Below are positions 2 to 13,325 of a stretch of 64,000 bases of DNA, piece by piece; the first letter of the stretch is position 1; every line of letters begins with the position of its first letter. The notes beneath the pieces were generated by a model. That model was not told the DNA's origin. It saw nothing but the letters and a program-made list of their open reading frames with translations, and did no database searches. The stretch is from Thermodesulfobacteriota bacterium. GTDB lineage: Bacteria; Desulfobacterota; Desulfobulbia; Desulfobulbales; SURF-16. Position numbers and translations under genes: made by a program. The stretch lies in contig JBDLIE010000002.1 in the NCBI GenBank assembly GCA_039715015.1, positions 69,422 through 133,421 on the forward strand, read 5' to 3'.

Positions 2-415
2 ACCCATTTCCCAGATGTCCTCAGTCCTGATTTCAATGGTGACCTTGAGCAACGTTTAATTCAGCTTGAAAAGGTCTGCTGTGACTTTGAAAAAGTTATT
101 CTCATCGGCTCAAGTTTTGGTGGGCTCATGGCCACATGTTTTGCCATTCTCCACCCATCGCGTGTGGTAAAGCTTATTCTTCTTGCCCCGGCATTAAATT
201 TCGAAGATTATCATCCCCCTGCAACCATGATTGCTTCCCCTACCCTTCTTGTTATGGGCGCACAAGATAGTGTCTGCCCGCCTGAGATAGTCGTGCCATT
301 AGCAGATGCAACGTTTAGCAACCTGAAGACCCAGATCTTTGCTGATGATCATCTTTTAAGAAAGGTATTTCCTGAGATGGACTGGCACAAACTGCTTGGC
401 GGCGCGGGGAACTGA
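2..415 (+). CDS. alpha/beta hydrolase (YqiA/YcfP-like), 5'-truncated by the window edge
   Basis: The frame is open from nt 2 and reads ...KVILIGSSFGGLMATCF..., a GxSxG nucleophile elbow. Later GAQDSVC and DDH give candidate catalytic Asp and His. The ORF track start at 128 is internal. Confidence 0.8.
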   Translation, partial: THFPDVLSPDFNGDLEQRLIQLEKVCCDFEKVILIGSSFGGLMATCFAILHPSRVVKLILLAPALNFEDYHPPATMIASPTLLVMGAQDSVCPPEIVVPLADATFSNLKTQIFADDHLLRKVFPEMDWHKLLGGAGN

Positions 416-433
416 AAGTAGCGAGGGAAACTC

Positions 434-1735
434 TTACTCTGATTCGCCATAGCGATACTTGATATCCTGCAGAATAAAATTCTCCAGGGTGTTATCAAAG
501 GAACCTTTCAAACAATCCACTTTTTCCATATTGCCGTCTCTGACCAAAGCCAGATAACGGCACCCCCCAAAACAAAGGGGCAGATATTGGCATGAGCGGC
601 ATTTATTCTCATATTGCCAGTTATCGGTATGATACATAGAAATTTCTTTAACACCATTCCAGATATCACCTATCTCATAGTCGGGACGGCCAATAAGAAC
701 CGGACATTTACACAATGTGCCATCATAATTAATGGTCAAACTGTCATGACGCAGCACCTTGCACGGATTAGGCTTTTCCTCAGGGTAATAGTAGCCGGCT
801 GCAAGTATTTTCTCTCTTAGCATTGACTGTGCCTGGACAAGCCACGTCTCTGTTAAAGTCTCACACCCTTGGCGATAGCTGCTCTCGGCAACATCATCCG
901 TCTGCTGCATAACCGATGCAAAACGCACCTGATGAAGATGGTCCGGGCCAAGGTCTTTCTCTGCCAGGATATCCAGTAACTCGGGAAATCGGTTATAGAT
1001 GTGTTCAGTGAAATTCCCACCAAGGGATAGGGTGATCAGATCAGCACAGGATCGAAGATTTTCCAGAATAACAGCAAAGCTTGGTTTCCCAGAGATATAG
1101 GGGCGAGAATTATTGTGAAGATCAGGTGGGCCGTCCAGGGTTATCTTGGCTCCCACAAGTCCGTATGGGATAAGGCTTTTTACTGTTTCAGAGGTCAACA
1201 GTGAGCCATTAGTGATAAGGGAAAATTCAAACTCTCTCTCTCTCTGGGCCGTCATTTCCTGAAAGCCCTGACAAAGTTGCCGTATCAACGGCACATAGAG
1301 AAGGGGTTCACCGCCATAAAAGGTGATACTGAGCTTATCCCTGTCTTCAAACTGGCCCTCAACATACTTCAGCAGTTGAGCAGCAGTGTCAGCAGACATT
1401 GAAGACTTATCAGCTTTCAAACTCCCCTCATAGCAATAGGAACAGGCAAAATTACAAGCCATCCCTAGAATGATATCGAGATATAGACCTGAGCATCTTT
1501 TATTTATCTGATCAACAAAGGAGAAAACCTCTTGCTGTTCCGCCTCCAGGTCGTCCACAACAAAACCAAGCTCCGCAAGTTGTGGAACTATTTCGCCATC
1601 AAAACTACCTGATTTGAGGGCAACGAAATCAGCATCTTCCACAACAACAAGAGCTCCATTTTTGGTGGAATATAAAACAGTGAGACCTGATGAAGTATCC
1701 AATGGGAAATTTTTCAGGTAATGGGAAAGATGCAT
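434..1735 (-). CDS. radical SAM/SPASM peptide maturase (geopeptide-maturase-like)
   Basis: Has CxxxCxxC (CNFACSYC), FYGGEPLL, ITNG and TLDG motifs. C-terminal SPASM cysteines: CKV...CKCP...CRSCQYLPLCFGGC...C. The ~70-aa N-terminal extension resembles a RiPP recognition element. It lies directly downstream of a short peptide gene. Confidence 0.9.
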   Translation of the reverse strand: MHLSHYLKNFPLDTSSGLTVLYSTKNGALVVVEDADFVALKSGSFDGEIVPQLAELGFVVDDLEAEQQEVFSFVDQINKRCSGLYLDIILGMACNFACSYCYEGSLKADKSSMSADTAAQLLKYVEGQFEDRDKLSITFYGGEPLLYVPLIRQLCQGFQEMTAQREREFEFSLITNGSLLTSETVKSLIPYGLVGAKITLDGPPDLHNNSRPYISGKPSFAVILENLRSCADLITLSLGGNFTEHIYNRFPELLDILAEKDLGPDHLHQVRFASVMQQTDDVAESSYRQGCETLTETWLVQAQSMLREKILAAGYYYPEEKPNPCKVLRHDSLTINYDGTLCKCPVLIGRPDYEIGDIWNGVKEISMYHTDNWQYENKCRSCQYLPLCFGGCRYLALVRDGNMEKVDCLKGSFDNTLENFILQDIKYRYGESE

Positions 1736-1775
1736 AAAGCGAAGAAGGTATCAGTAAAAACATGGTCATCAAACA

Positions 1776-1807
1776 AAACGAGGAGACCTTAAAAGGTCTC
1801 CTCGTTT
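1776..1807 (-). terminator. perfect 15-bp stem-loop between precursor peptide and maturase (terminator/attenuator or mRNA-stabilising hairpin)
   Basis: AAACGAGGAGACCTT-AA-AAGGTCTCCTCGTTT, with a T-rich tail on the minus strand. Confidence 0.8.
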
Positions 1808-1835
1808 CACATAAACTTTTCTAGGATTTCCTGGA

Positions 1836-1931
1836 TCAACCGCTTGGAGCACCGGGAGGGCAGAAAGCTTTAGATTTTGCAATAACCTCTGCCGTTGTTC
1901 CTTGATTTAAAACTATGACCTTCTTTTTCAT
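1836..1931 (-). CDS. putative RiPP precursor peptide, 31 aa (MKKKVIVLNQGTTAEVIAKSKAFCPPGAPSG)
   Basis: Translated by hand from the reverse complement: ATG at 1931, GGAGG RBS 8 nt upstream, TGA at 1836-1838. It is co-oriented with and immediately upstream of the rSAM/SPASM gene and is followed by a strong hairpin. It is below the ORF track size cut-off. Confidence 0.85.
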   Translation of the reverse strand: MKKKVIVLNQGTTAEVIAKSKAFCPPGAPSG

Positions 1932-2016
1932 TCTATCAACCTCCGCGCTAAATTACCTAATCAATGAGTGGATCATTTTCAAATAAACCTATCACACCGT
2001 TACCTAAAAAACAAAT

Positions 2017-3990
2017 TTAAAAATTTAACTTTAAACCCACCTCAGCATGTCTAGGAGAATTCTCAAAACGTTCTTGTACGTACTGGCTTGAATTAAATAG
2101 ATTTCGTACTACACCAAAAAGGGCTGCCCGGAATTTTTCTGTACTAAAAATTTCTTTATTCAAGCTGATATCCCAGAGAAAATTGTTCGTTTCCAGTGGT
2201 TCAGGAAGCTCGGTGAGAAGTTCGCCCCACTTCACATAATGTCCGGAAATCTCTGCCGTGAGAATGTCAGGATGATCATAAATGAAAATAATATTTGCCG
2301 TACTTGAATGATCAGCTTGATCCTCTGGCCAGTCAGTATAAGTATAGGTAAAATTAGCCTGGAGGGAAAGGTGATAAAAAGCCTCAGTGCGCACTTCAAA
2401 TTCAAATCCCTGACGTTGGCTACGATCACCATTCATCTTCCAAATGCTGTAATCAGGGGCAGTTACCCAGGTATTCTCGACGTCATGATGAAACAAGGTT
2501 GTTTTGACGTGAAGATAGGGAATGTCCTTACTCTCTAAACCAATTTGGTAGGTCCAATTTTTTTCTGCGTCCAAATCAGGATTAACCACGGTAGGGCTGT
2601 ATAAGGCATCACCCTCAAGATACCAGACCGGTGGTTTGCGAAAGCCTCGGGAAACGGACGCCCTCAGCAAACTAGCATCACTAAGCTGGTATGTAACACC
2701 GAGTGAAGGGCTTATTAACTCATCGGAGACTGTGGAAATATGATCAAGGCGAACGCCTGGAGTAATTGTCCAATCATCAAATACAAAGGTTCCGTTTAGA
2801 TAGTAGCCTGACACATCCTCAGCGAGGAGATCCATTTCGTAATAATCACCCATGGGGGCAAGGTGTGGATAAAAGAAATCCCAGATGCTGCTATCTCTAT
2901 ACTTCCAAGTCATCTGAACCTCATTACGTTGATAGTCAATACCGGCTACCAAGGCATGTTTTCCCAAAAGATAGTCGAATCGAAGAGCACCACCTGTACT
3001 CTCTTGATCATTAAAAAAATCCTCAATTAGAGTGATGGGTCGATGGGTGGTTTTTTGAAAAGCCCTATAGTCATTATCAAAACGAAAGATCTCAGCATGA
3101 AAATTAAGTCCTTCGGCAATGAGGGCGTCAAAACGAGCACTCATAAATGTATTTTTATCATGAAGTTCCTGGCTATAACCCATGGGCGGGTTAACTGAGT
3201 AAGCCGTAAGCCACTTAACGTGCAAAAATTCCGGTTGTGAATAAAACCCTGAAACATCAAGGGTCATATCGGAGGCGAAGTCAAAATGAAACTTGCCGTA
3301 ACCAGTTGTATTCTTGAAAAATCTATCCTCAAGGAGGCCGTCAGACTCCTGGTTTCCAGCATAGACATAATAACTTAGAGAAGAAACCTTTCCGGCCACT
3401 TCGGCAGTGATATCGTGGGTGTCTTTTTCTCCAAAGGAGGTCACCAAGTCAACCTGCGGAGTTTTTGACTTCCCTGGATCCTTAGTAATAATATTAATAA
3501 CTCCACCCAAAGCTGATCCCCAAGTGGATGAGGCAGCGCCCTTAATCACTTCAATTCTTTTGATAATCCGGACGGGAACCATATTTACCCAGGCGACTTC
3601 TACAGAACTCTTATTCACCCTTACTCCGTCAAGAAGAACCGTCACATGTTCCCAGTCAGATCCCTGAATATAGATATAAGATGCTGTGTTGAAATCAAGC
3701 CCTCCGTAATCCACATAGACCCCGGCCACCCGGTTAAGAACATCGTCAACATTATGGGCGTTCATCCGCTCGATTTCTTCTGCGGTAATGATGGTGACAT
3801 TCTCTGCCACCTGATTGATAGGTTTCCTGATGCGAGTGGCAGCTTCAACAACTTGCGACTCGTCAAAATAAAGATCGAGAAACTCGTCATCACCAGCCAT
3901 CTCCGCTGCTTCCCCGGCAAGGACGGAATTTGGCACAATGAATAAACACGGTACTATTAAGATGAGCCCCAAAAACAAAAACTTGTGCAT
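2017..3990 (-). CDS. TonB-dependent outer-membrane receptor
   Basis: Signal peptide, plug-domain motifs (VTIITAEEIER, VLLDG, RIEVIKGAASSTWG...LGGVINIITK), NPDLDAE and a C-terminal Phe. ATG at 3990 has a GGGGG RBS and is preferred over TTG at 4005. Confidence 0.92.
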   Translation of the reverse strand: MHKFLFLGLILIVPCLFIVPNSVLAGEAAEMAGDDEFLDLYFDESQVVEAATRIRKPINQVAENVTIITAEEIERMNAHNVDDVLNRVAGVYVDYGGLDFNTASYIYIQGSDWEHVTVLLDGVRVNKSSVEVAWVNMVPVRIIKRIEVIKGAASSTWGSALGGVINIITKDPGKSKTPQVDLVTSFGEKDTHDITAEVAGKVSSLSYYVYAGNQESDGLLEDRFFKNTTGYGKFHFDFASDMTLDVSGFYSQPEFLHVKWLTAYSVNPPMGYSQELHDKNTFMSARFDALIAEGLNFHAEIFRFDNDYRAFQKTTHRPITLIEDFFNDQESTGGALRFDYLLGKHALVAGIDYQRNEVQMTWKYRDSSIWDFFYPHLAPMGDYYEMDLLAEDVSGYYLNGTFVFDDWTITPGVRLDHISTVSDELISPSLGVTYQLSDASLLRASVSRGFRKPPVWYLEGDALYSPTVVNPDLDAEKNWTYQIGLESKDIPYLHVKTTLFHHDVENTWVTAPDYSIWKMNGDRSQRQGFEFEVRTEAFYHLSLQANFTYTYTDWPEDQADHSSTANIIFIYDHPDILTAEISGHYVKWGELLTELPEPLETNNFLWDISLNKEIFSTEKFRAALFGVVRNLFNSSQYVQERFENSPRHAEVGLKLNF

Positions 3991-4404
3991 TACATCCCCC
4001 GACAATGCTTTAAAAAAAAATAGCCGCTCTCCTAAAAAAGGAAATTATGGCTCAAAAAACATTTAATTTTTTTAAAAATGTTGCCCTGCAAAAAGGACTT
4101 CCGAAAAACTTTTTCCAAAATATTATATAAAACTTTAGAATCTTTTACCAATTCATTATTGAAACATCTAGTTTTGGACAATCACTCTCTTTTGCAGTTA
4201 GGACACATATTTCATCTCTCAGATTTAAATGAATGAAAGCAACCATTCTTCCTGACAACAAATTGCAATTATTAATGTAAATATTCTTTGAATATACTAA
4301 GGTTAAAAGTATTGGTTTTCCTCTGATTATCAGGAAATCCTCTGAAAAGATTAATTTTTCGTATATTTTTTTGCGGCATCTCTTTTTTAAAACAAGCAAA
4401 CTAC

Positions 4405-5313
4405 ATGCTTAAACACTTCGTCCTGTCTATTTTCCTTATATTCTCGACGGCCTCCTATTCCTATGGCTTCGAGGTGGTTGCTGTGAAGTCCAGCACAGCC
4501 GAACCCTATAGCCTCGCTTTTGAATCCTTCAGCCGCACTTTCACCAGTGCCGTACCTACCCGTGGGCCTAAATCGATAACACAGAACGCGATAATTACCC
4601 GCACCATTAATCAGGATGACACCCCTGACAGACTTGTGCGTCAAATCCGCAAAGAGAATCCTGACCTTCTAATTGCCTTTGGTTCAAAAGCATTACGATT
4701 TACTGCTTCCATCAAAGACATCCCTATTATTTACCTGCTGGTTCCGTCCCCAGACAAAATCATTAGAGATAGGAGCAATGTCACAGGTGTTCTTCTTCAA
4801 CCTGTGGCTGGCCTCGAATTTCGGGCCCTTCGCAAGATAGCCCCCGCTTTAAAAAGAATCGGCGTAGTCTACAACCCTGCCAAAAGCAAGGATCTCGTCA
4901 GGGAGACGATCAGCAACAATAAAGATCTCCATTACATGCTGCGTCCGGTTCAACAGCCTCAAGAGGTGGCCAAACAACTTGACACTCTAGCCTCGGAGGT
5001 CGATCTGGTTTGGATGCCACCCGACAGTACTGTTCTCACGCCTCACACTGAGCAGAGTTTTTACCTTTTTTCTCTGCAAAACGAGGTTCCTCTCCTTGCT
5101 TTTTCAGAGAAATATCTCAAAAAAGGGGCCAGTTTTGCTGTAAGTCTCGACCTCTCCAGCATGGGAGATATGGCGGCAGACCTTGCCCTGCTCATAAAAA
5201 ATGGCGCCAAGGCCGTCAACATCCCACCCATCCGGCCCCAACAGGTAAAACTTAAACAAAACAGCATTATCCTCAACAAGCTTGGTTTCCATATCCAGGA
5301 GGTCGGCCAATGA
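4405..5313 (+). CDS. periplasmic ABC-type substrate-binding-like protein (orphan, no permease or ATPase nearby)
   Basis: Signal peptide and ABC_sub_bind-like motifs (NVTGV, KRIGVVYNP, WMPPDSTV, GA..AVSLD...MG..AA). Overlaps the kinase start (ATGA). Confidence 0.8.
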   Translation: MLKHFVLSIFLIFSTASYSYGFEVVAVKSSTAEPYSLAFESFSRTFTSAVPTRGPKSITQNAIITRTINQDDTPDRLVRQIRKENPDLLIAFGSKALRFTASIKDIPIIYLLVPSPDKIIRDRSNVTGVLLQPVAGLEFRALRKIAPALKRIGVVYNPAKSKDLVRETISNNKDLHYMLRPVQQPQEVAKQLDTLASEVDLVWMPPDSTVLTPHTEQSFYLFSLQNEVPLLAFSEKYLKKGASFAVSLDLSSMGDMAADLALLIKNGAKAVNIPPIRPQQVKLKQNSIILNKLGFHIQEVGQ

Positions 5314-7073
5314 TCTTTGCAAAATTTATCAAACAGGTTCAGGCAAGCTATTCAGCCAAACTCATTTTGATTTTTATTGCCTCTATATGCCTGATGGGTA
5401 CCATTCTTAACTTCACCTTTATCCGTATGCAGCAAGACTCCTACGCGACATACACACGCAACAGTGGTCTTTCCATGTCTCGACTGCTGGCCAAGTCTGT
5501 CCAGATCGACGTTTTCACCGAAAACAAAGAACAGTTAGCCATCCCTATGGACGCCCTTTTAAGCCAGGAAAATATTCTTAAGGTTGAAATATTTACCGAC
5601 AAAGGTGAGTTGCTGGTTTCTCGAGCTTCAAGTGAGAGCTGTGAGATTCCTGACTTAAAAAAAACACTGGGCGATTTGCCGCAAAGCAAATCGTCCTTTA
5701 ATGAGTGGCCCAATTGTTTTTCCTTCATATGGCCTGTTCTGACACTCCCTCAATATAAAAGCGAAGACTCCCTCTACTTTGATGAAGCCAGCGAACTCAC
5801 TCCTGTGGACAATCATCCCCTGGGATACGTTTCCATCATCATGTCGAAACGTCAGTATCAGCAGGACATTCAGCAAATTTTTCTTAAAACCGGCCTCACT
5901 ATTCTTTTCATTTTAGTACTCTTGGTCACCGGCATTCTTCTGCTTTTCAGAAAAATGACTCTGCCGTTAAAGAATCTGATAGGGAAGATACAAAGAGAAC
6001 GAAACATTGGCGAGGTACATGATGACATTGGCCTTCTTGACACCACAGTTACCAGCCTAGTTGACGAACTTGACCGTTCTTTTCAAACCATTAACGATCT
6101 AACCACAGGCCTGGAGGACAAGGTAACAGAACGCACCAAACAGCTTGCCATGGCCAATACTGAATTGACCAACCGTCAGGAGTATCTTGAAGAGTCAAAC
6201 CTAAAACTTGAAAAGGCGATGAAGGAGCTTAAGGAAACAGAAGGCCAACTGATCCAGTCTGAAAAAATGGCGGCATTAGGTCAAGTTGTGGCAGGCGTTG
6301 CCCATGAGATCAACAACAATATCAACTTTATATCCGGGGCACTACCATCGCTGACCCGCGCCCTAAGTGACATTCAAAAACTGACAAAAAAATTTGACGA
6401 GGCCTTTGTCCAGGCGTCCGGGGATGATGCTGAAAAAAAACAGCAGGAAGCAATCGCCCTAAAAAAAGAGCTTGAAGAGGATAATCTCTTCAACTCTCTG
6501 GATCAACTCATGGCAAACATTCGTGAAGGCGTCAACCGGACAACGAGCATCGTTTCTGAACTGCGTACTTTTTCTCGCTCTGACGAGCAGGGCTTCAAAA
6601 AGGTCGATCTCCACGATTCCATTAATTCAACCATCACCTTTCTGAACAAGAAATATCTTACAGATGTTGATATCCACAAAGATTATGGCACTATTCCGCC
6701 GGTAAGTTGCCGACCGGGCCGGATAAATCAGGTTTTTCTCAACATTATGAATAACGCCATACAGGCCATGGGGAAAAAGGGAGGCATCCTGACAATTAGC
6801 ACTTTTCTTAATGGCGACGACGTACATATCCGTTTTACCGACACAGGGGCCGGAATAAACCAAGATACCCTTCCTAAAATTTTCGACCCCTTTTTTACGA
6901 ATAAAGACACAGGTGAAGGATCAGGCATTGGCCTTGCTGTGAGTTACAAAATTATCCAAGAGCACCAAGGCCGGATCGACGTGCAGAGTAAAGAGGATAA
7001 AGGCAGCACCTTTGAAATCGTTCTACCGATGGAACACGTCGATGAGACGATCTCTGAGTCTAAGAACAGTTAA
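5310..7073 (+). CDS. membrane-bound sensor histidine kinase
   Basis: Two TM segments flank a periplasmic domain. H-box QSEKMAALGQVVAGVAHEINN, N box NAIQA, DTGAGI, FDPFFT, GSGIGL. Confidence 0.95.
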   Translation: MIFAKFIKQVQASYSAKLILIFIASICLMGTILNFTFIRMQQDSYATYTRNSGLSMSRLLAKSVQIDVFTENKEQLAIPMDALLSQENILKVEIFTDKGELLVSRASSESCEIPDLKKTLGDLPQSKSSFNEWPNCFSFIWPVLTLPQYKSEDSLYFDEASELTPVDNHPLGYVSIIMSKRQYQQDIQQIFLKTGLTILFILVLLVTGILLLFRKMTLPLKNLIGKIQRERNIGEVHDDIGLLDTTVTSLVDELDRSFQTINDLTTGLEDKVTERTKQLAMANTELTNRQEYLEESNLKLEKAMKELKETEGQLIQSEKMAALGQVVAGVAHEINNNINFISGALPSLTRALSDIQKLTKKFDEAFVQASGDDAEKKQQEAIALKKELEEDNLFNSLDQLMANIREGVNRTTSIVSELRTFSRSDEQGFKKVDLHDSINSTITFLNKKYLTDVDIHKDYGTIPPVSCRPGRINQVFLNIMNNAIQAMGKKGGILTISTFLNGDDVHIRFTDTGAGINQDTLPKIFDPFFTNKDTGEGSGIGLAVSYKIIQEHQGRIDVQSKEDKGSTFEIVLPMEHVDETISESKNS

Positions 7074-7138
7074 AAAATATTTTTTTACTTTAATGAGAGG
7101 TGAAGCACACCTCATTAAACATGTTGCGGGGTAAACTT

Positions 7139-8974
7139 ATGGATAAGCTGAAACTCCTTTATGTAGATGATGAAGAGGTGAATCTTTCCAATTTCAAAAT
7201 GGCCATGAAACGCCATTTTTCGATTATCACAGCACTATCTGCCAAAGAGGCGCTCGACAGCTTTGCCGAACATGACGACATTGCTCTTGTGGTTGCCGAC
7301 CAGAGAATGCCCGGAAAGACCGGTACCGAGCTCCTGGGAGAAATTCGTGAGCTCAATTCTGATACGGTTCGCATTATGCTCACAGCCTATAGCGATCCTG
7401 CAGATATCATGGAGGCCATTAACACCGGTGAGGTATACCATTATCTAACAAAACCATGGAAGGAAGAGATCCTTCTCGACATCCTCAGCAAGGGCTCTGA
7501 AAAATATCGCCTGACCAAGGAAAACAAATCATTAGTTGAGCAACTGACTGTAAAGAATGAAGAACTTAAGCAAGAGTTGCAAACCAGTCGTCTCTTAAAA
7601 GACTCTCTTGTCAGACGTGATCTCATCCTGGCAGCTGTAAATGAGACGTCGCAAAAAATCATCAGCAGCTCCTATTGGCGCAAATTCACAGAACCTCTTA
7701 TTGGGCGCCTAGGGCTTGTTATGGCGGTTTCCCGCGTTCACATATACAGCTTCCAAAAAGATTCTTTTGAGAAGCTTACTGCCAATCAGGAATTTGAATG
7801 GAGCTCTGAGACAGCAGGCGCAGATAATGTTCCGCCTGTGCCCGAAATTTTCTCCTTCCCTGATGCTCAATTGGATCGCTGGCTCTCTCTACTCCAAAAA
7901 GGCGAATCTGTGGTGGACAACACTACGGACCTTCCCTCGCCTGAGACCTCCTTGCTCAATTCTCTAGGAATTATTTCAATAGTCTGCACGCCCATTATGG
8001 TGGAGGACTCTTGCTGGGGCTTTCTCAGTCTTGAAGACTGCAGCACAGAACGGACCTGGCCGGAGCTTGAGGTTGCAGCTATAAAAAGCGCTGCAAGCCT
8101 CATTGGCGAAGCGGTTCACCGGCAAGAAATGAACATCGAACTTTCCGCCAAACAGGACCAGCTGGCCCATGCTGGAAGACTCACCGCCATTGGCGAAATG
8201 GCAAAGGGTATGGCCCATGAAATCAACCTTCCAATGAGCCTAATCAGTCTTGGGGCAGACGAGCTGCATCAATATCTAACCAAGAACATACCAGAATCCC
8301 CCTATATAAAAACAACCAAAGACATAAGCGGCCAGGTTTCAAAGGTGATGCGCATAATCGAACATATGCGTGTATTCTCAACACTGTCCAAAGAAAACAT
8401 CACTGACATCAACCTTTTCTGGACAGTGAACAGCGCTCTCACCTTTTTCCGTGAGCAGTTCAGGGTTTCTCTCATCAAACTACACGAGGAAACCACTGAG
8501 GCTGTATCGTATATCTCAACTGACAACCAGAAGGTTGAGCAGATACTGGTCAACCTTCTGGCCAATGCCCGTTATGCGGTGATAAAAAAATCTGAAGAAA
8601 TTAAAAATTTCCCCATGGAGGTATGGGTCAGACTCTATCAACAAGAACTCACTGATGACATTCTAGAAAAAATTTCTGCTCAAGACAGAAAGGACGATCT
8701 CACAGCCGTTCTTGTTTTAGAAGTGGAAGATAATGGTATCGGTATGTCTGAAGAAACCATAAAACATTGCACAGAACCTTTTTTCTCCTCTAAAACTGTG
8801 GGTGAAGGTACTGGCCTGGGCCTCTCTGTCTCCAATTCCTTAATCAAGGAGCTCGGATTTCATCTTGAGATAGAATCTGCCTTGGGTGAGGGTTCTCTTT
8901 TCCGGCTCACAATCCCAGCCTACGAAGAATACCCAATGCTTCTCGACAACAACCAGGTTCAGTTTAAGGGATAA
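7139..8974 (+). CDS. cytoplasmic hybrid REC-GAF-histidine kinase
   Basis: N-terminal receiver (YVDDE...ADQRMP...MLT...TKPW), GAF-like middle (SIVCTPI...WGFLSLEDC...RTW), H-box AHEIN, and HATPase (DNGIG, GTGLGL). Confidence 0.92.
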   Translation: MDKLKLLYVDDEEVNLSNFKMAMKRHFSIITALSAKEALDSFAEHDDIALVVADQRMPGKTGTELLGEIRELNSDTVRIMLTAYSDPADIMEAINTGEVYHYLTKPWKEEILLDILSKGSEKYRLTKENKSLVEQLTVKNEELKQELQTSRLLKDSLVRRDLILAAVNETSQKIISSSYWRKFTEPLIGRLGLVMAVSRVHIYSFQKDSFEKLTANQEFEWSSETAGADNVPPVPEIFSFPDAQLDRWLSLLQKGESVVDNTTDLPSPETSLLNSLGIISIVCTPIMVEDSCWGFLSLEDCSTERTWPELEVAAIKSAASLIGEAVHRQEMNIELSAKQDQLAHAGRLTAIGEMAKGMAHEINLPMSLISLGADELHQYLTKNIPESPYIKTTKDISGQVSKVMRIIEHMRVFSTLSKENITDINLFWTVNSALTFFREQFRVSLIKLHEETTEAVSYISTDNQKVEQILVNLLANARYAVIKKSEEIKNFPMEVWVRLYQQELTDDILEKISAQDRKDDLTAVLVLEVEDNGIGMSEETIKHCTEPFFSSKTVGEGTGLGLSVSNSLIKELGFHLEIESALGEGSLFRLTIPAYEEYPMLLDNNQVQFKG

Positions 8975-9083: not shown

Positions 9084-9467
9084 TTGATTTCAGCAAGAAA
9101 CAATAAAGTCTTGATTGTTGATGACCAGCCACTTAACAGGCTTTTTCTTGCCGACCTTCTCAAGATGCATGAGATCAATCCCACCGAAGCCACCAATGGC
9201 AACGAGGCTGTCCAGCAGTGGCTTAAAAATGATTATGCAGTCATTCTGATGGATATCAAAATGCCAGACCTAAATGGCATTGATGCCACACGGATCATCC
9301 GACAGAAAGAAATGGAACAGGGTTTAGCCAAAACACCGATTATAGCTGTTACCGCTTACGGGACCAAAGAAACCCAGAATGATTGCCGGAATGCCGGCAT
9401 GGATGGCTATATCCCCAAGCCGGTTAATGTATCAGATCTCCTCGAAATGATAGAAAACCTTCATTGA
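9084..9467 (+). CDS. single-domain (CheY-like) response regulator
   Basis: VLIVDD...MDIKMP...IIAVTA...PKP, with no output domain. TTG start follows a AAGGAG RBS. Confidence 0.9.
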   Translation: MISARNNKVLIVDDQPLNRLFLADLLKMHEINPTEATNGNEAVQQWLKNDYAVILMDIKMPDLNGIDATRIIRQKEMEQGLAKTPIIAVTAYGTKETQNDCRNAGMDGYIPKPVNVSDLLEMIENLH

Positions 9468-9603: not shown

Positions 9604-10566
9604 TCAGTCGTTAGCTGGAAAATTTTCCGTCACTATACGCACCATATTGCTGCGAGGAAATTCCTTTTTCAAAAGAGACTTCAAGTTCTTTTTAAGTTTC
9701 CCAACCCCAACCTCAAACTCATCCACCGAGAAACCCTTTTCCTTGATTAAAACCCGTTGCTGATCAAGCTTGACCAAGGTCAGAGAGCGGTCACGTTTAT
9801 AGGTCAACAAAACAAGTGATCCTCCCTCATTAAGTTGAGACATTTTCTGGATTACAACAGGCACCACATTAGCAATATCCACCATTATTTCTTCACTCAC
9901 ACTGGTTAATGAATCACGCTCCAAAAGCGCTTGTTCTTCCATCTCAAAATCTGCTGCCATGCTCATTTGCTTTGAAGCTGCATCTTTACGTTTTCTTGGA
10001 GCTACAGACCTTACCTCTGGAGAAGCGGGCATTTCATTTTTCTTTGCCTCTTGCTGAAAGACAAGTGCCGGGGCCGGCATTGGCTCTTCTTCAGTCACCA
10101 AACTTTTCCCTTGCTGCGGCGCTTCAACGATTGCATCTTCACTAGACATAGGCAACTGTGGGGTGTCCTCGGTAATTATAGGAGAAGTTGCCTTATGCTC
10201 CACCGGAGGTGGCGGCGCAAGATTGATGTAGAGGAGAATACTAGCTGCCGCTGCAAGCAACGAACCTGCAGTGGCAAAACTAAGTGCTCGCTTTGCAAGC
10301 CATGGGCCTTTAATGACCTTTCCTGAACCAGCAAAATTTTCCATACTTAAAAGACGCCACTCATCATAGCAGGATTGACATTCTGCCAAATGGGCAAGAC
10401 AATGCTGTCTCTCCACCTCTGAGAGAGAGCCATCAACCAGCAATGCCATCTTGTCAGAAGTCAGACAGTTACCACTTTTAACGTCCTTGCTGGCTGCAAG
10501 CGCCGTCAGGGCTGTGGCCTTATTTGATTCTGTAAAAAGGTTGTCTTGCTTACTCACCAATCCCAC
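9604..10566 (-). CDS. putative zinc-finger (ZAS/zf-HC2) transmembrane anti-sigma factor
   Basis: HxxxCxxC (HLAECQSC), one TM helix, then a Pro/Glu-rich extracytoplasmic region. Located directly downstream of a sigma-like gene. Confidence 0.7.
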   Translation of the reverse strand: MGLVSKQDNLFTESNKATALTALAASKDVKSGNCLTSDKMALLVDGSLSEVERQHCLAHLAECQSCYDEWRLLSMENFAGSGKVIKGPWLAKRALSFATAGSLLAAAASILLYINLAPPPPVEHKATSPIITEDTPQLPMSSEDAIVEAPQQGKSLVTEEEPMPAPALVFQQEAKKNEMPASPEVRSVAPRKRKDAASKQMSMAADFEMEEQALLERDSLTSVSEEIMVDIANVVPVVIQKMSQLNEGGSLVLLTYKRDRSLTLVKLDQQRVLIKEKGFSVDEFEVGVGKLKKNLKSLLKKEFPRSNMVRIVTENFPAND

Positions 10567-10620
10567 CTATATTTTTCAATAATCCCATACTGCCATAGAC
10601 GGACATATCAAACATCTTTG

Positions 10621-11478
10621 TCAACATTCTTGGTTTAATAACAACAGTAGTTCTTCCGCCAGCCCTGCATCAGTAAATGTTTTTTTGAGTCGTAATAAGA
10701 GGCGGCGCATCTTACCGTGGGCCTGATGAACTGTCAGTTTAAGGAGCTTGGCGGCCTGGGAAACAGAAAGCTCATCTTGAAAACAGAGCTTCAACAGCAA
10801 CCTCTCCTCAGCGCTCATAGATATCGAAATATCCATTACTCCGCGAAAAGAGTCATTCATGGAAGGGGTAACAGGTTGGTCCTGGAGAAGGTTTTGGAAG
10901 ATGATGGCAAAAAGAATACCCCGCTCCTTTTTTTCCAAGTCTGCCACTTGGCTTTCCTGACCCGGAGAAGGTTCACAGTCCATATCGCCATCGCTGGTAA
11001 GATCTTCCTTACCGCTATATTTCCCGCAGTCGGTTATTTCAGACAGGATACGCGAGGCTGCCTCTTCAGCATCAAAATGGACGTCGGGACCACACGTTTC
11101 CAGGCGGTTTAAAGCATCGGGCAAGGATTGGCGCTCTAGACACAAGAAACGATAGAGAACAAGCCACCAGCCTCCAAGCTTTGTGAGCCAAGAGGGAGGT
11201 CGCAATCGCCCAAATCGACTCCGACTGAAATCCTCAAAGAGGCGGCAGGTCACCGAACCGAGATAGCTCGAAAATCGGGCCCGGCCGGAAAACCCGGCAA
11301 GACGTTTACCATCGCCATCCTGCAATTTCTCCAGGGCATAGACCACAGCCTCCTCAGCCAGGCCAGGATCGTTAAAACGCCTGGCTGCCAAGCGATCAAG
11401 CAAGGCGAGATGGTCATGGATTTTCTCTACAAGTTTTTTCGACACAGACACATATCCAAGCCACAGGGCAACCTTCAT
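10621..11478 (-). CDS. ECF-type sigma-70 factor
   Basis: Region 2-like segment (AEEAVVYALEKL...FSGRARFSSYL...RLFED) and region 4-like HTH (SAEERLLLKLCFQDELSVSQAAKLL). Start position uncertain. Confidence 0.7.
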   Translation of the reverse strand: MKVALWLGYVSVSKKLVEKIHDHLALLDRLAARRFNDPGLAEEAVVYALEKLQDGDGKRLAGFSGRARFSSYLGSVTCRLFEDFSRSRFGRLRPPSWLTKLGGWWLVLYRFLCLERQSLPDALNRLETCGPDVHFDAEEAASRILSEITDCGKYSGKEDLTSDGDMDCEPSPGQESQVADLEKKERGILFAIIFQNLLQDQPVTPSMNDSFRGVMDISISMSAEERLLLKLCFQDELSVSQAAKLLKLTVHQAHGKMRRLLLRLKKTFTDAGLAEELLLLLNQEC

Positions 11479-11624
11479 TCACAAACCAGAAACTCTCAAA
11501 ACTTTACTCATTTGCTCGCAAAAACTCCAAGGCTGTTTTTTTCACGACAAAAGAGAATCAGCTGTCCGTCCCCTAAGACAGATGATGTGGAAACTGACGT
11601 TAATTTCAACAAAAGGAGATTCAA

Positions 11625-13325
11625 ATGAAAACAAGAAAATATCTGGCCATTCTCTTTCTTCCTCTTGCCTTGGCAGCCTGCCAGTCCGAAAAAACCGCCC
11701 GGCAAGACCTTGTCCAACCCGAGGAGGAAAGAGTAATGCTTGCCCCTGTCCGCACCCCTCATCCCCAGATCCCCGCCCCTGTAGAAATGAAAAAAAACAA
11801 AGAACACCTGCTCAGTGCGGATATGGCAATGCCTGCCTCCACCATGGCTGCACCAGGAAAGACCGCGCATTACGAGATGGGCCGCCAAAAGGCACGGCAC
11901 GAATGGAACAGAGAATCCTACAGCTATAATGAGGAACAAGGTTTTCAGAACGTCCACAACGATCCGCTCTCCACCTTTTCCATCGATGTTGACACAGCAG
12001 CCTACAGTAATATCAGGCGTTTCATTAATCAGGGAAGTATGCCGCCTGTGGGGGCCGTCCGCATCGAAGAGATGCTTAATTATTTCAGCTACAACTACCC
12101 CCAGCCTAGCAAAGGGCCTTTTTCGGTAACCACAGAGGTAGGTCCCTGTCTTTGGGAAACAGATCATAAATTGGTTCGTATCGGCCTTAAGGGCAAGGAT
12201 ATTGAAAAGGGCAATCTGCCCCCTTCAAATCTGGTCTTTCTTATAGATGTCTCAGGCTCCATGCAGGCCGCCAACAAACTGCCTCTGCTCAAAAAATCCA
12301 TGCAGATGCTGGTGAACCAGCTCGGCGAAAAAGATCGGGTGGCAATTGTTGTCTATGCAGGTTGTGACCGGGTGGTGTTGCCACCCACGAGTGGCAATGA
12401 CAAAAAAACCATCATAAAGGCCATTGATAATCTTACGGCAGGGGGATCCACCAATGGTGCTAGTGGTATTATTACCGCCTATAATCTTGCCGAGCGTGTT
12501 TTAATGCCATCCGGCAATAACCGCATCATCCTTGCTTCGGACGGCGACTTTAATGTTGGCGTTACCAGCCGTGGCGAACTTCAAAAGCTTGTGGAGAAAA
12601 AGAGCAAATCAGGGATTTACCTCACCGTCCTAGGATTCGGCATGGGGAACTACCATGATGACACCATGGAGATTCTTGCCGACAAGGGCAATGGCAACTA
12701 TGCCTATATCGATAATCTGATGGAAGCCAAAAAGGTCCTTGTTAAAGAGATGACCGGCACCATGTTCGCCATTGCCAAGGATGTTAAAATCCAGGTGGAG
12801 TTTAACCCGGCTCAGGTGGCGGCATATCGTCTGGTTGGCTACGAAAATAGAATGCTTGCTGATGAAGATTTCAATAACGACAAGAAAGATGCCGGCGAGA
12901 TCGGCGCCGGCCATACCGTGACTGCGCTCTATGAGTTGATCATGGCCGGAGGCAAAGACCTCCCGGCCATCGACCCCTTGAAATACCAACGACCAAGCAG
13001 TGCAAAAATTGCCGCCGCCAATGATTATGGCGATGAACTTCTCACCGTGAAGATACGTTACAAAAAACCAAATAAAAAGACCAGTAACCTGATGAGTGTT
13101 GTGGTCAAGAAAAGTTCAGAGCGTCTGGCTGACACCTCCGGCGACTTCCATTTTGCCTCAGCCGTGGCAGGGTTTGGCATGGTGCTTACTGATTCGGCCC
13201 ATAAGAAGAAGCTGTCCTACGAAACTATCATTGCCTCAGCCCAACATGGTCGAGGCAGAGATATGAACGGCTACCGGGCAGAGTTCGTCCGCCTTGTGGA
13301 AAACAGTGAACTGCTGAACCAATAG
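11625..13325 (+). CDS. VWA-domain lipoprotein, YfbK family
   Basis: Lipobox LAAC, PLSTFSIDVDTAAY, VRIEEMLNYF, MIDAS motif DVSGSM, SDGDFNVG, YRLVGYENR...DAGEIG. Confidence 0.9.
   Translation: MKTRKYLAILFLPLALAACQSEKTARQDLVQPEEERVMLAPVRTPHPQIPAPVEMKKNKEHLLSADMAMPASTMAAPGKTAHYEMGRQKARHEWNRESYSYNEEQGFQNVHNDPLSTFSIDVDTAAYSNIRRFINQGSMPPVGAVRIEEMLNYFSYNYPQPSKGPFSVTTEVGPCLWETDHKLVRIGLKGKDIEKGNLPPSNLVFLIDVSGSMQAANKLPLLKKSMQMLVNQLGEKDRVAIVVYAGCDRVVLPPTSGNDKKTIIKAIDNLTAGGSTNGASGIITAYNLAERVLMPSGNNRIILASDGDFNVGVTSRGELQKLVEKKSKSGIYLTVLGFGMGNYHDDTMEILADKGNGNYAYIDNLMEAKKVLVKEMTGTMFAIAKDVKIQVEFNPAQVAAYRLVGYENRMLADEDFNNDKKDAGEIGAGHTVTALYELIMAGGKDLPAIDPLKYQRPSSAKIAAANDYGDELLTVKIRYKKPNKKTSNLMSVVVKKSSERLADTSGDFHFASAVAGFGMVLTDSAHKKKLSYETIIASAQHGRGRDMNGYRAEFVRLVENSELLNQ

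Follow-up and report, generated by a model that had tools for sequence, protein, structure and literature searches.

What does a reading frame of 31 codons encode when it sits between the gene of a TonB-dependent outer-membrane receptor and that of a radical SAM/SPASM enzyme, on the same strand as both, and what becomes of its single cysteine? This is the question raised by the locus described here, which belongs to a 64,000-nucleotide stretch of DNA analysed as a whole (hereafter the window). The peptide, MKKKVIVLNQGTTAEVIAKSKAFCPPGAPSG, contains one cysteine (Cys24), with Phe23 in front of it and prolines at positions 25, 26 and 29. The initial annotation had described an unannotated, geopeptide-type precursor with a GGAGG site and a single-Cys, three-Pro core, and these features of the sequence were confirmed (Table 1).

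Table 1. Features of the geopeptide-variant cassette and of the genes next to it, in window coordinates.
Feature	Position	Strand	Evidence or remark
One-Cys geopeptide-variant precursor gene, 31 codons	1836..1931	-	Encodes MKKKVIVLNQGTTAEVIAKSKAFCPPGAPSG; leader/core alignment, Cys-Cys HMM
Ribosome-binding site GGAGG	1940..1944	-	8 nt 5' of ATG; similar sites at relatives' precursors
Leader codons 5-11 (VIVLNQG), hydrophobic, conserved	1899..1919	-	Alignment
Cys24 codon, counterpart of second Cys in the family Cys-Cys pair	1860..1862	-	Sole invariant column in 22 aligned precursors
Phe23 codon, where the first Cys was lost	1863..1865	-	N, N, N, G, G in the other five one-Cys precursors
Radical SAM/SPASM maturase (TIGR04280) with N-terminal RRE-like domain	434..1735	-	Profile score, AlphaFold model
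Hairpin, 15-bp, then U residues, between peptide and maturase genes	1775..1808	-	z -3.9, 0/200 shuffles
TonB-dependent outer-membrane receptor	2017..4005 (longest frame; likely start ATG 3990)	-	Co-varies with peptide type
Periplasmic binding protein (PF04392), divergent, without adjacent ABC permease	4405..5313	+	Independent of peptide type
Membrane sensor histidine kinase	5310..7073	+	Independent of peptide type
Receiver-GAF-histidine kinase hybrid	7100..8974	+	Kept behind kinase within the genus
Single-domain response regulator	9084..9467	+	

The exact peptide is absent from a collection of 15 billion proteins, which fits its unannotated status. An HMM trained on 149 unique two-Cys precursors, with zero one-Cys sequences included, ranked the window ORF first among the 36,138 small ORFs of the genome (20.6 bits, E 5e-4), the runner-up reaching 13.2 bits. 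The initial annotation had staked its proposal on a conserved short ORF being found at homologous loci, and a short precursor, of the Cys-Cys type, does occupy the equivalent position in 26/26 homologous maturase loci from named genomes, with maturases 38-46% identical. The reading frame is preserved among relatives, with four synonymous and two non-synonymous changes over 28 codons between genomes G006 and G003. A ~70x contig spanning 300-2384 has identical letters, including the Phe-Cys codons, and possibly comes from the source sample, hence it is not independent; the metagenome runs containing the window DNA are marine and all belong to one study. The Phe-Cys codons are no assembly slip. 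The ORF is confirmed as a real precursor gene and, judging from its sequence, is almost certainly translated.

The adjacent maturase matches TIGR04280, the geopeptide radical SAM maturase model, over its full length with 469.5 bits (curated cut-off 400), and it is the only gene above this cut-off in the host genome, which is 99.99% complete. Its closest named homolog, at 61% identity, carries the source label Desulfurivibrionaceae (Desulfobulbales). The peptide model TIGR04229 (cut-off 30 bits) gave no match to the window peptide at E up to 10; as 0/17 Cys-Cys controls passed the cut-off of the same model and 4/17 gave weak matches, the model is narrow and its miss of the window peptide says little. 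By these profile scores the maturase is classed as a TIGR04280 member and the peptide as a variant homolog below the TIGR04229 cut-off. The Cys-Cys pair, a typical geopeptide feature according to our own locus set in place of a published definition, is absent from the window core, which has one Cys. The family is already named in NCBIfam. It is a common family in the phylum, with the maturase present in 72/87 and 72/124 genomes of two other families, yet a literature search with limited coverage of subscription journals found no relevant paper on geopeptide chemistry or role. Of 61 relatives examined, 36 have the maturase.

How unusual the single cysteine is was assessed with 188 non-redundant maturases, leaving out rows shorter than 380 aa or below 32% identity. 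Their loci comprise 162 Cys-Cys precursors, 14 one-Cys precursors and two with other spacings (178 classified), together with 10 where no precursor was found, so that the initial annotation was right in giving Cys-Cys as the usual geopeptide core (162/178). The five closest maturases with DNA context (G006, G004, G003, G001 and G025; 49-61% identical) all have one-Cys precursors, ending in NCAPGSPK, NCKPGTPAMD, NCAPGTPK, GCKPGAPS and GCPSKMPTNA, respectively; the contig of GCKPGAPS begins inside the ORF, its leader is unseen and its one-Cys state was set by hand. When 22 precursors are aligned, Phe23 takes the place of the first Cys of the pair and Cys24 that of the second, and Pro29 is invariant in the five full-length one-Cys sequences of the clade. 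The stretch V-I-V-L-x-x-G, earlier proposed as leader, proved to be a conserved part of it, and we infer that VIVLNQG is the RRE-binding strand. The six one-Cys maturases form one clade within the Cys-Cys diversity (SH-aLRT 99). The FC core is indeed a one-Cys variant of a Cys-Cys family, as had been suggested, although not a lone one, since it belongs to this clade of six in which Phe is not conserved (F, N, N, N, G and G precede the Cys).

The 188-maturase tree requires three changes, with the remaining eight one-Cys forms in two groups of family f78, and a single grouping of all 14 was rejected (AU p 0.0006, 40 of 188 rows). Well-supported branches force at least two origins of the one-Cys forms. 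Loss of the first Cys has thus been tolerated repeatedly, which shows that the Cys-Cys pair is not required, and a reaction joining the two adjacent cysteines to each other would then not be universal in the family. The f78 one-Cys groups (L216, L219, L225, L218, L245, L247, L252 and L254) have hydrophobic, aromatic-rich tails, unlike the Pro/Gly tails found here, and the other core spacings are Cys-Lys-Cys and Cys-Trp-Trp-Cys-Thr-Cys (L173 and L260).

The AlphaFold model of the maturase (pLDDT 88.7) has an N-terminal domain of three strands and three helices, and its best match by both sequence and fold is CteB, aligned over residues 4-426; anSME equals CteB in Z score, but its alignment starts only at residue 82. 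The window locus presents the combination typical of sacti- and ranthipeptides, in which a radical SAM/SPASM enzyme that bears an RRE goes with a core containing Cys. Besides C94, C98 and C101, the enzyme contains eight conserved C-terminal cysteines (291, 325, 344, 379, 382, 388, 392 and 408), and the seven canonical ones plus C291, which sits next to a loop modelled with low confidence, are present in 173/176 enzymes. In CteB, according to PMC8326336, an open iron site of the auxiliary cluster serves the donor Cys. C291 may fill this site, a possibility that keeps alive an anSME-like oxidation of the Cys itself. The six catalytic-proximity positions, taken as defined in PMC10288494 and mapped through the CteB alignment, are Y102, Y140, I174, T199, P345 and V346; this profile (Y,Y,I,T,P,V) is not that of CteB-type ranthisynthases (F,F,T,S,H,Q), from which it differs among others by Pro/Val in place of His363/Gln364 of CteB, and the StsB profile (Y,T,I,S,K,L) matches it only partially. 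The same profile, with its difference from CteB at the His/Gln pair, is typical across the whole geopeptide family, and for this reason the one-Cys clade probably performs the family's reaction.

The one-Cys clade has maturase residues of its own (D87, Q303, A313 and K326, each 0/162 in Cys-Cys enzymes) and has lost the acidic residue at 328 present in 158/162 Cys-Cys maturases. R313 and D/E328, lost together, may be a structural pair, and all these changes occur in a single clade, which makes them indistinguishable from shared ancestry. No correspondence with the one-Cys state is seen for the extra Cys342. In the next NCBIfam family, TIGR04463, a characterised thioether-forming member modifies motifs such as CAGM and CPLV (PMC13692751). 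Among the geopeptide tails 45/175 are without Asp, Glu, Thr or Asn, and no acceptor is conserved family-wide. From the sequence comparisons Cys24 is very probably the modified residue, and a thioether seems rather more probable than other Cys chemistry. Such a link would most likely connect Cys24 with a residue three to five positions downstream, with Gly27, Ala28 or Pro29, the last of them invariant in the clade, as the most likely acceptors. The single-Cys thioether offered as an option in the initial annotation remains the best, putative, reading, with CteB as best match of the enzyme. A substrate of 31 residues with one Cys and a tail of seven residues offers the easiest starting point for working out the chemistry.

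The surroundings of the cassette, with receptor, binding protein and kinase, match those of other geopeptide loci. A TonB receptor is present in 36/36 loci with wide flanks, and binding protein plus kinase in 28/36, several of the misses being short contigs. Hairpins were found in 132/176 of the homologous peptide-maturase gaps, vs 14/528 shuffles, and the one at the window locus is likely a partial terminator or mRNA stabiliser yielding excess peptide message. No exporter or peptidase is conserved across the homologous loci, an MFS transporter seen at 8/160 of them has no match in the window genome, and the precursor is devoid of a signal sequence. A Fur-like box lies upstream of 1/39 receptor genes vs 0.8 expected.

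Several further observations concern this neighbourhood. The G+C content of the cassette and sensor genes (window 434-7073) is 43-48%, mildly below the 50.2% of the genome. A small alpha/beta hydrolase gene (window 2-415, plus strand) converges on the maturase gene in six loci within the genus, which include both peptide types; it is a candidate processing enzyme, not conserved beyond the genus. At window 9604-13325 an ECF-like sigma factor and a zf-HC2 anti-sigma gene, on the minus strand, diverge from a VWA/YfbK lipoprotein gene, and this group also adjoins the cassette in G004. An element of ~170 bp lies between hairpin and maturase in G006 and G003 (L065:9385-9634, L067:7884-8223), and similar copies (68-90%) at many places in the window genome suggest a small mobile or REP-like family. 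In G059 (L076:6701-7900) a toxin-antitoxin-like pair, judged by eye to be PIN-like with a small partner, splits precursor and maturase, which are ~1 kb apart. Two maturase frames contain one internal TGA each (L052 in G030, L232 in G929), by way of a broken gene, recoding or a sequencing error.

What changes together with the peptide type is seen in the genomes G005 (Cys-Cys) and G006 (one Cys), in which the DNA flanks on both sides of the cassette are 92-95% identical. The binding proteins are 91%, the kinases 93% (89-91% in the sensor part) and the hybrid kinases 94% identical, whereas the receptors share only 53% and the maturases 46% and the peptides are of different type. Within the receptor gene identity drops in the 5' part, and it is regained at the maturase 3' end, so most of the receptor was replaced and the signal-peptide end is common to both. 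Receptor barrel, peptide and maturase were exchanged as one block, with the binding protein and kinase constant. This is one clean exchange, being the only qualifying pair (kinase at least 70%, maturase below 58%) from different single-cassette genomes in a screen of 23 complete cassettes. The same association is seen in three tandem-cassette genomes, where receptors follow maturase type (80-92% within vs 40-43% between) and binding proteins do not (74-87%). Partial correlations, descriptive since the pairs are not independent, amount to 0.86 for maturase and receptor given the kinase and to 0.07 for maturase and kinase given the receptor.

Receptors also occur away from a complete cassette. 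Genome G002 (99% complete) has a Cys-Cys cassette and, in tandem with the receptor beside it (L071:5397-9716), an intact extra receptor gene without peptide or maturase, 63-75% identical to four one-Cys-type receptors of the same genus; no second precursor was found in this genome, and the extra receptor looks, from its sequence, like an eavesdropping one. In G007 (92% complete; L267:1498-3091) a Cys-Cys peptide and a receptor are present and a maturase was found neither adjacent nor elsewhere in the genome; repeats lie downstream. Elsewhere, two nearby geopeptide cassettes with different peptides are found in L073, L074, L075, L008, L257 and L258, and two precursor copies before one maturase in L003 and L257. 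On these sequence comparisons specificity appears to track the outer-membrane receptor, unlike in classic pherotypes. The proposal of a distinct pherotype in the initial annotation was thus sound in that peptide type is inherited and exchanged en bloc, yet this type follows TonB receptor and maturase and not the binding protein or kinase. The swap evidence points to a design for a two-membrane bacterium in which the gate in the outer membrane, and not the kinase, sets peptide specificity, and together with the receptor-only genomes (G002 and G007) the swap pair opens the question of function to cross-feeding tests.

Our overall reading is that of a translated precursor with an RRE-held leader and a thioether at Cys24, followed by type-specific import and generic sensing, and we give it a probability of roughly 0.45. 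The leader would likely be gripped by the RRE-like domain of the adjacent radical SAM enzyme, which would likely join Cys24 through one thioether to a nearby downstream residue. Cleavage and export, presumed steps, would come next, and the product is quite probably re-imported by the type-matched TonB receptor, acting as specificity filter, and likely sensed by the shared binding protein and kinase. Since these two do not differ between peptide types, what they would read is some feature that every type has, be it the cross-linked Cys unit, a fragment of the product or a cargo. The cassette suggests a private signal or scavenging molecule, and we lean slightly to signalling over a nutrient role.

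The main rival, rather unlikely, is that Cys24 is itself oxidised, with hydrogen taken from C-beta as by anSME, and that the thioaldehyde-derived group so formed gives a metal-binding or cofactor-like peptide; the locus would then be a methanobactin- or siderotype-like one in an anaerobe, with type-specific and cheater receptors and a kinase reporting the arrival of cargo. It would agree with a core in which the Cys alone is conserved and acceptors vary freely, with eight C-terminal cysteines that could fully ligate both auxiliary clusters, with the tie between anSME and CteB in fold and with the receptor-only states just described. For pyoverdine it is known that the diversity of receptors matches that of the products and that additional receptors exist (PMC11444679); in methanobactin operons a TonB transporter goes with a Cys-rich precursor, and precursors with a single Cys or a Cys doublet are among them (PMC3621798). 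The families nearest by sequence are nevertheless thioether formers, the RRE-like domain is common to CteB and lies outside the anSME alignments, Fur-like boxes are at the expected count, no ABC permease or exporter is linked, and one Cys would be a poor chelator. Quite improbable, to our judgement, is a peptide that stays in the cytoplasm as cofactor precursor, regulator or substrate-like partner of the enzyme, the receptor co-varying through the shared operon and the binding protein and kinase having an unrelated ligand. This would explain why signal sequence, exporter and peptidase are all absent and why binding protein and kinase do not follow peptide type, and it is hard to reconcile with the receptor adjacent in every wide-flank locus, with tandem cassettes each retaining their own divergent receptor, with the intact foreign-type receptor kept in G002 and with the exchange in G005/G006, which replaced most of the receptor even if the signal-peptide end is still shared.

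Two readings turn on the Phe. A Phe-based C-C link, cyclophane-like, had been listed among the options in the initial annotation and is very improbable, given that five of the six clade precursors have Asn or Gly at the site and no aromatic at all, that their maturases share all six catalytic-proximity residues with the window enzyme, and that 110/175 family cores are without an aromatic residue between six positions before the Cys and the end. That FC arose in a two-Cys peptide by an assembly error, or by a recent mutation from TGC to TTC with loss of function, could be argued from the single base between these codons and the prevalence of Cys-Cys precursors; with a whole clade without the first Cys (codons AAC, AAT, GGC or GGT elsewhere), intact maturase and receptor frames and no variant in the 70x contig, it is already largely refuted. 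Finally, a broader and unlikely proposal takes geopeptides as an anaerobe's private peptide currency with specificity coded at the outer membrane, in which swappable blocks feed a generic binding protein and kinase and non-producers eavesdrop; the one-Cys clade, its SPASM surface rewired by the gain of K326 and D87 and the loss of R313 and of the acidic residue at 328, would be its minimal form, and the enzyme, making no thioether, may oxidise the Cys to an oxygen-independent counterpart of the methanobactin metal-binding unit.

Compared with known systems, the window shares with the geopeptide system (TIGR04280/TIGR04229) the leader pattern, the Cys position and a short precursor directly upstream of the maturase, and differs from it by having one Cys, by the TIGR04229 miss and by the clade-specific changes in the maturase. 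With CteB, PapB and CrpC (TIGR04463) it has in common the layout of RRE-like, radical SAM and SPASM domains, a Cys near the core start and a short tail, whereas here the donor Cys is single, Asp/Glu/Thr/Asn are not conserved as acceptors, the enzyme has an eighth conserved Cys and the locus is linked to an importer in the outer membrane and to a sensor. Methanobactin operons (MbnA, MbnB/C, MbnT and MbnM) likewise have a small Cys precursor with a basic leader and an adjoining TonB-dependent transporter, but MbnB and MbnC are not among the window neighbours, where a radical SAM enzyme stands instead, there is no MATE exporter, a two-component kinase replaces the FecIRA-type regulation and the host lineage is an anaerobe group (the family name coming from the homolog's label). 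In the pyoverdine siderotypes (FpvA), according to PMC11444679, product type and TonB receptor diversify jointly and extra receptors are carried, as here. The product of the window is ribosomal and not NRPS-made, and no Fur-like box signal was found. Cyclophane-type aromatic cross-linked RiPPs need a conserved core aromatic, which is lacking in the window clade and in the family. In the agr and comQXP pherotype loci peptide and processing enzyme are swapped as a block and the sensor kinase changes with the peptide. Block exchange among close relatives is alike in both, but here the kinase and binding protein stay and the outer-membrane receptor changes, without the co-variation of the kinase. 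By this comparison the system would work like a receptor-coded type system and not like an agr-type pherotype.
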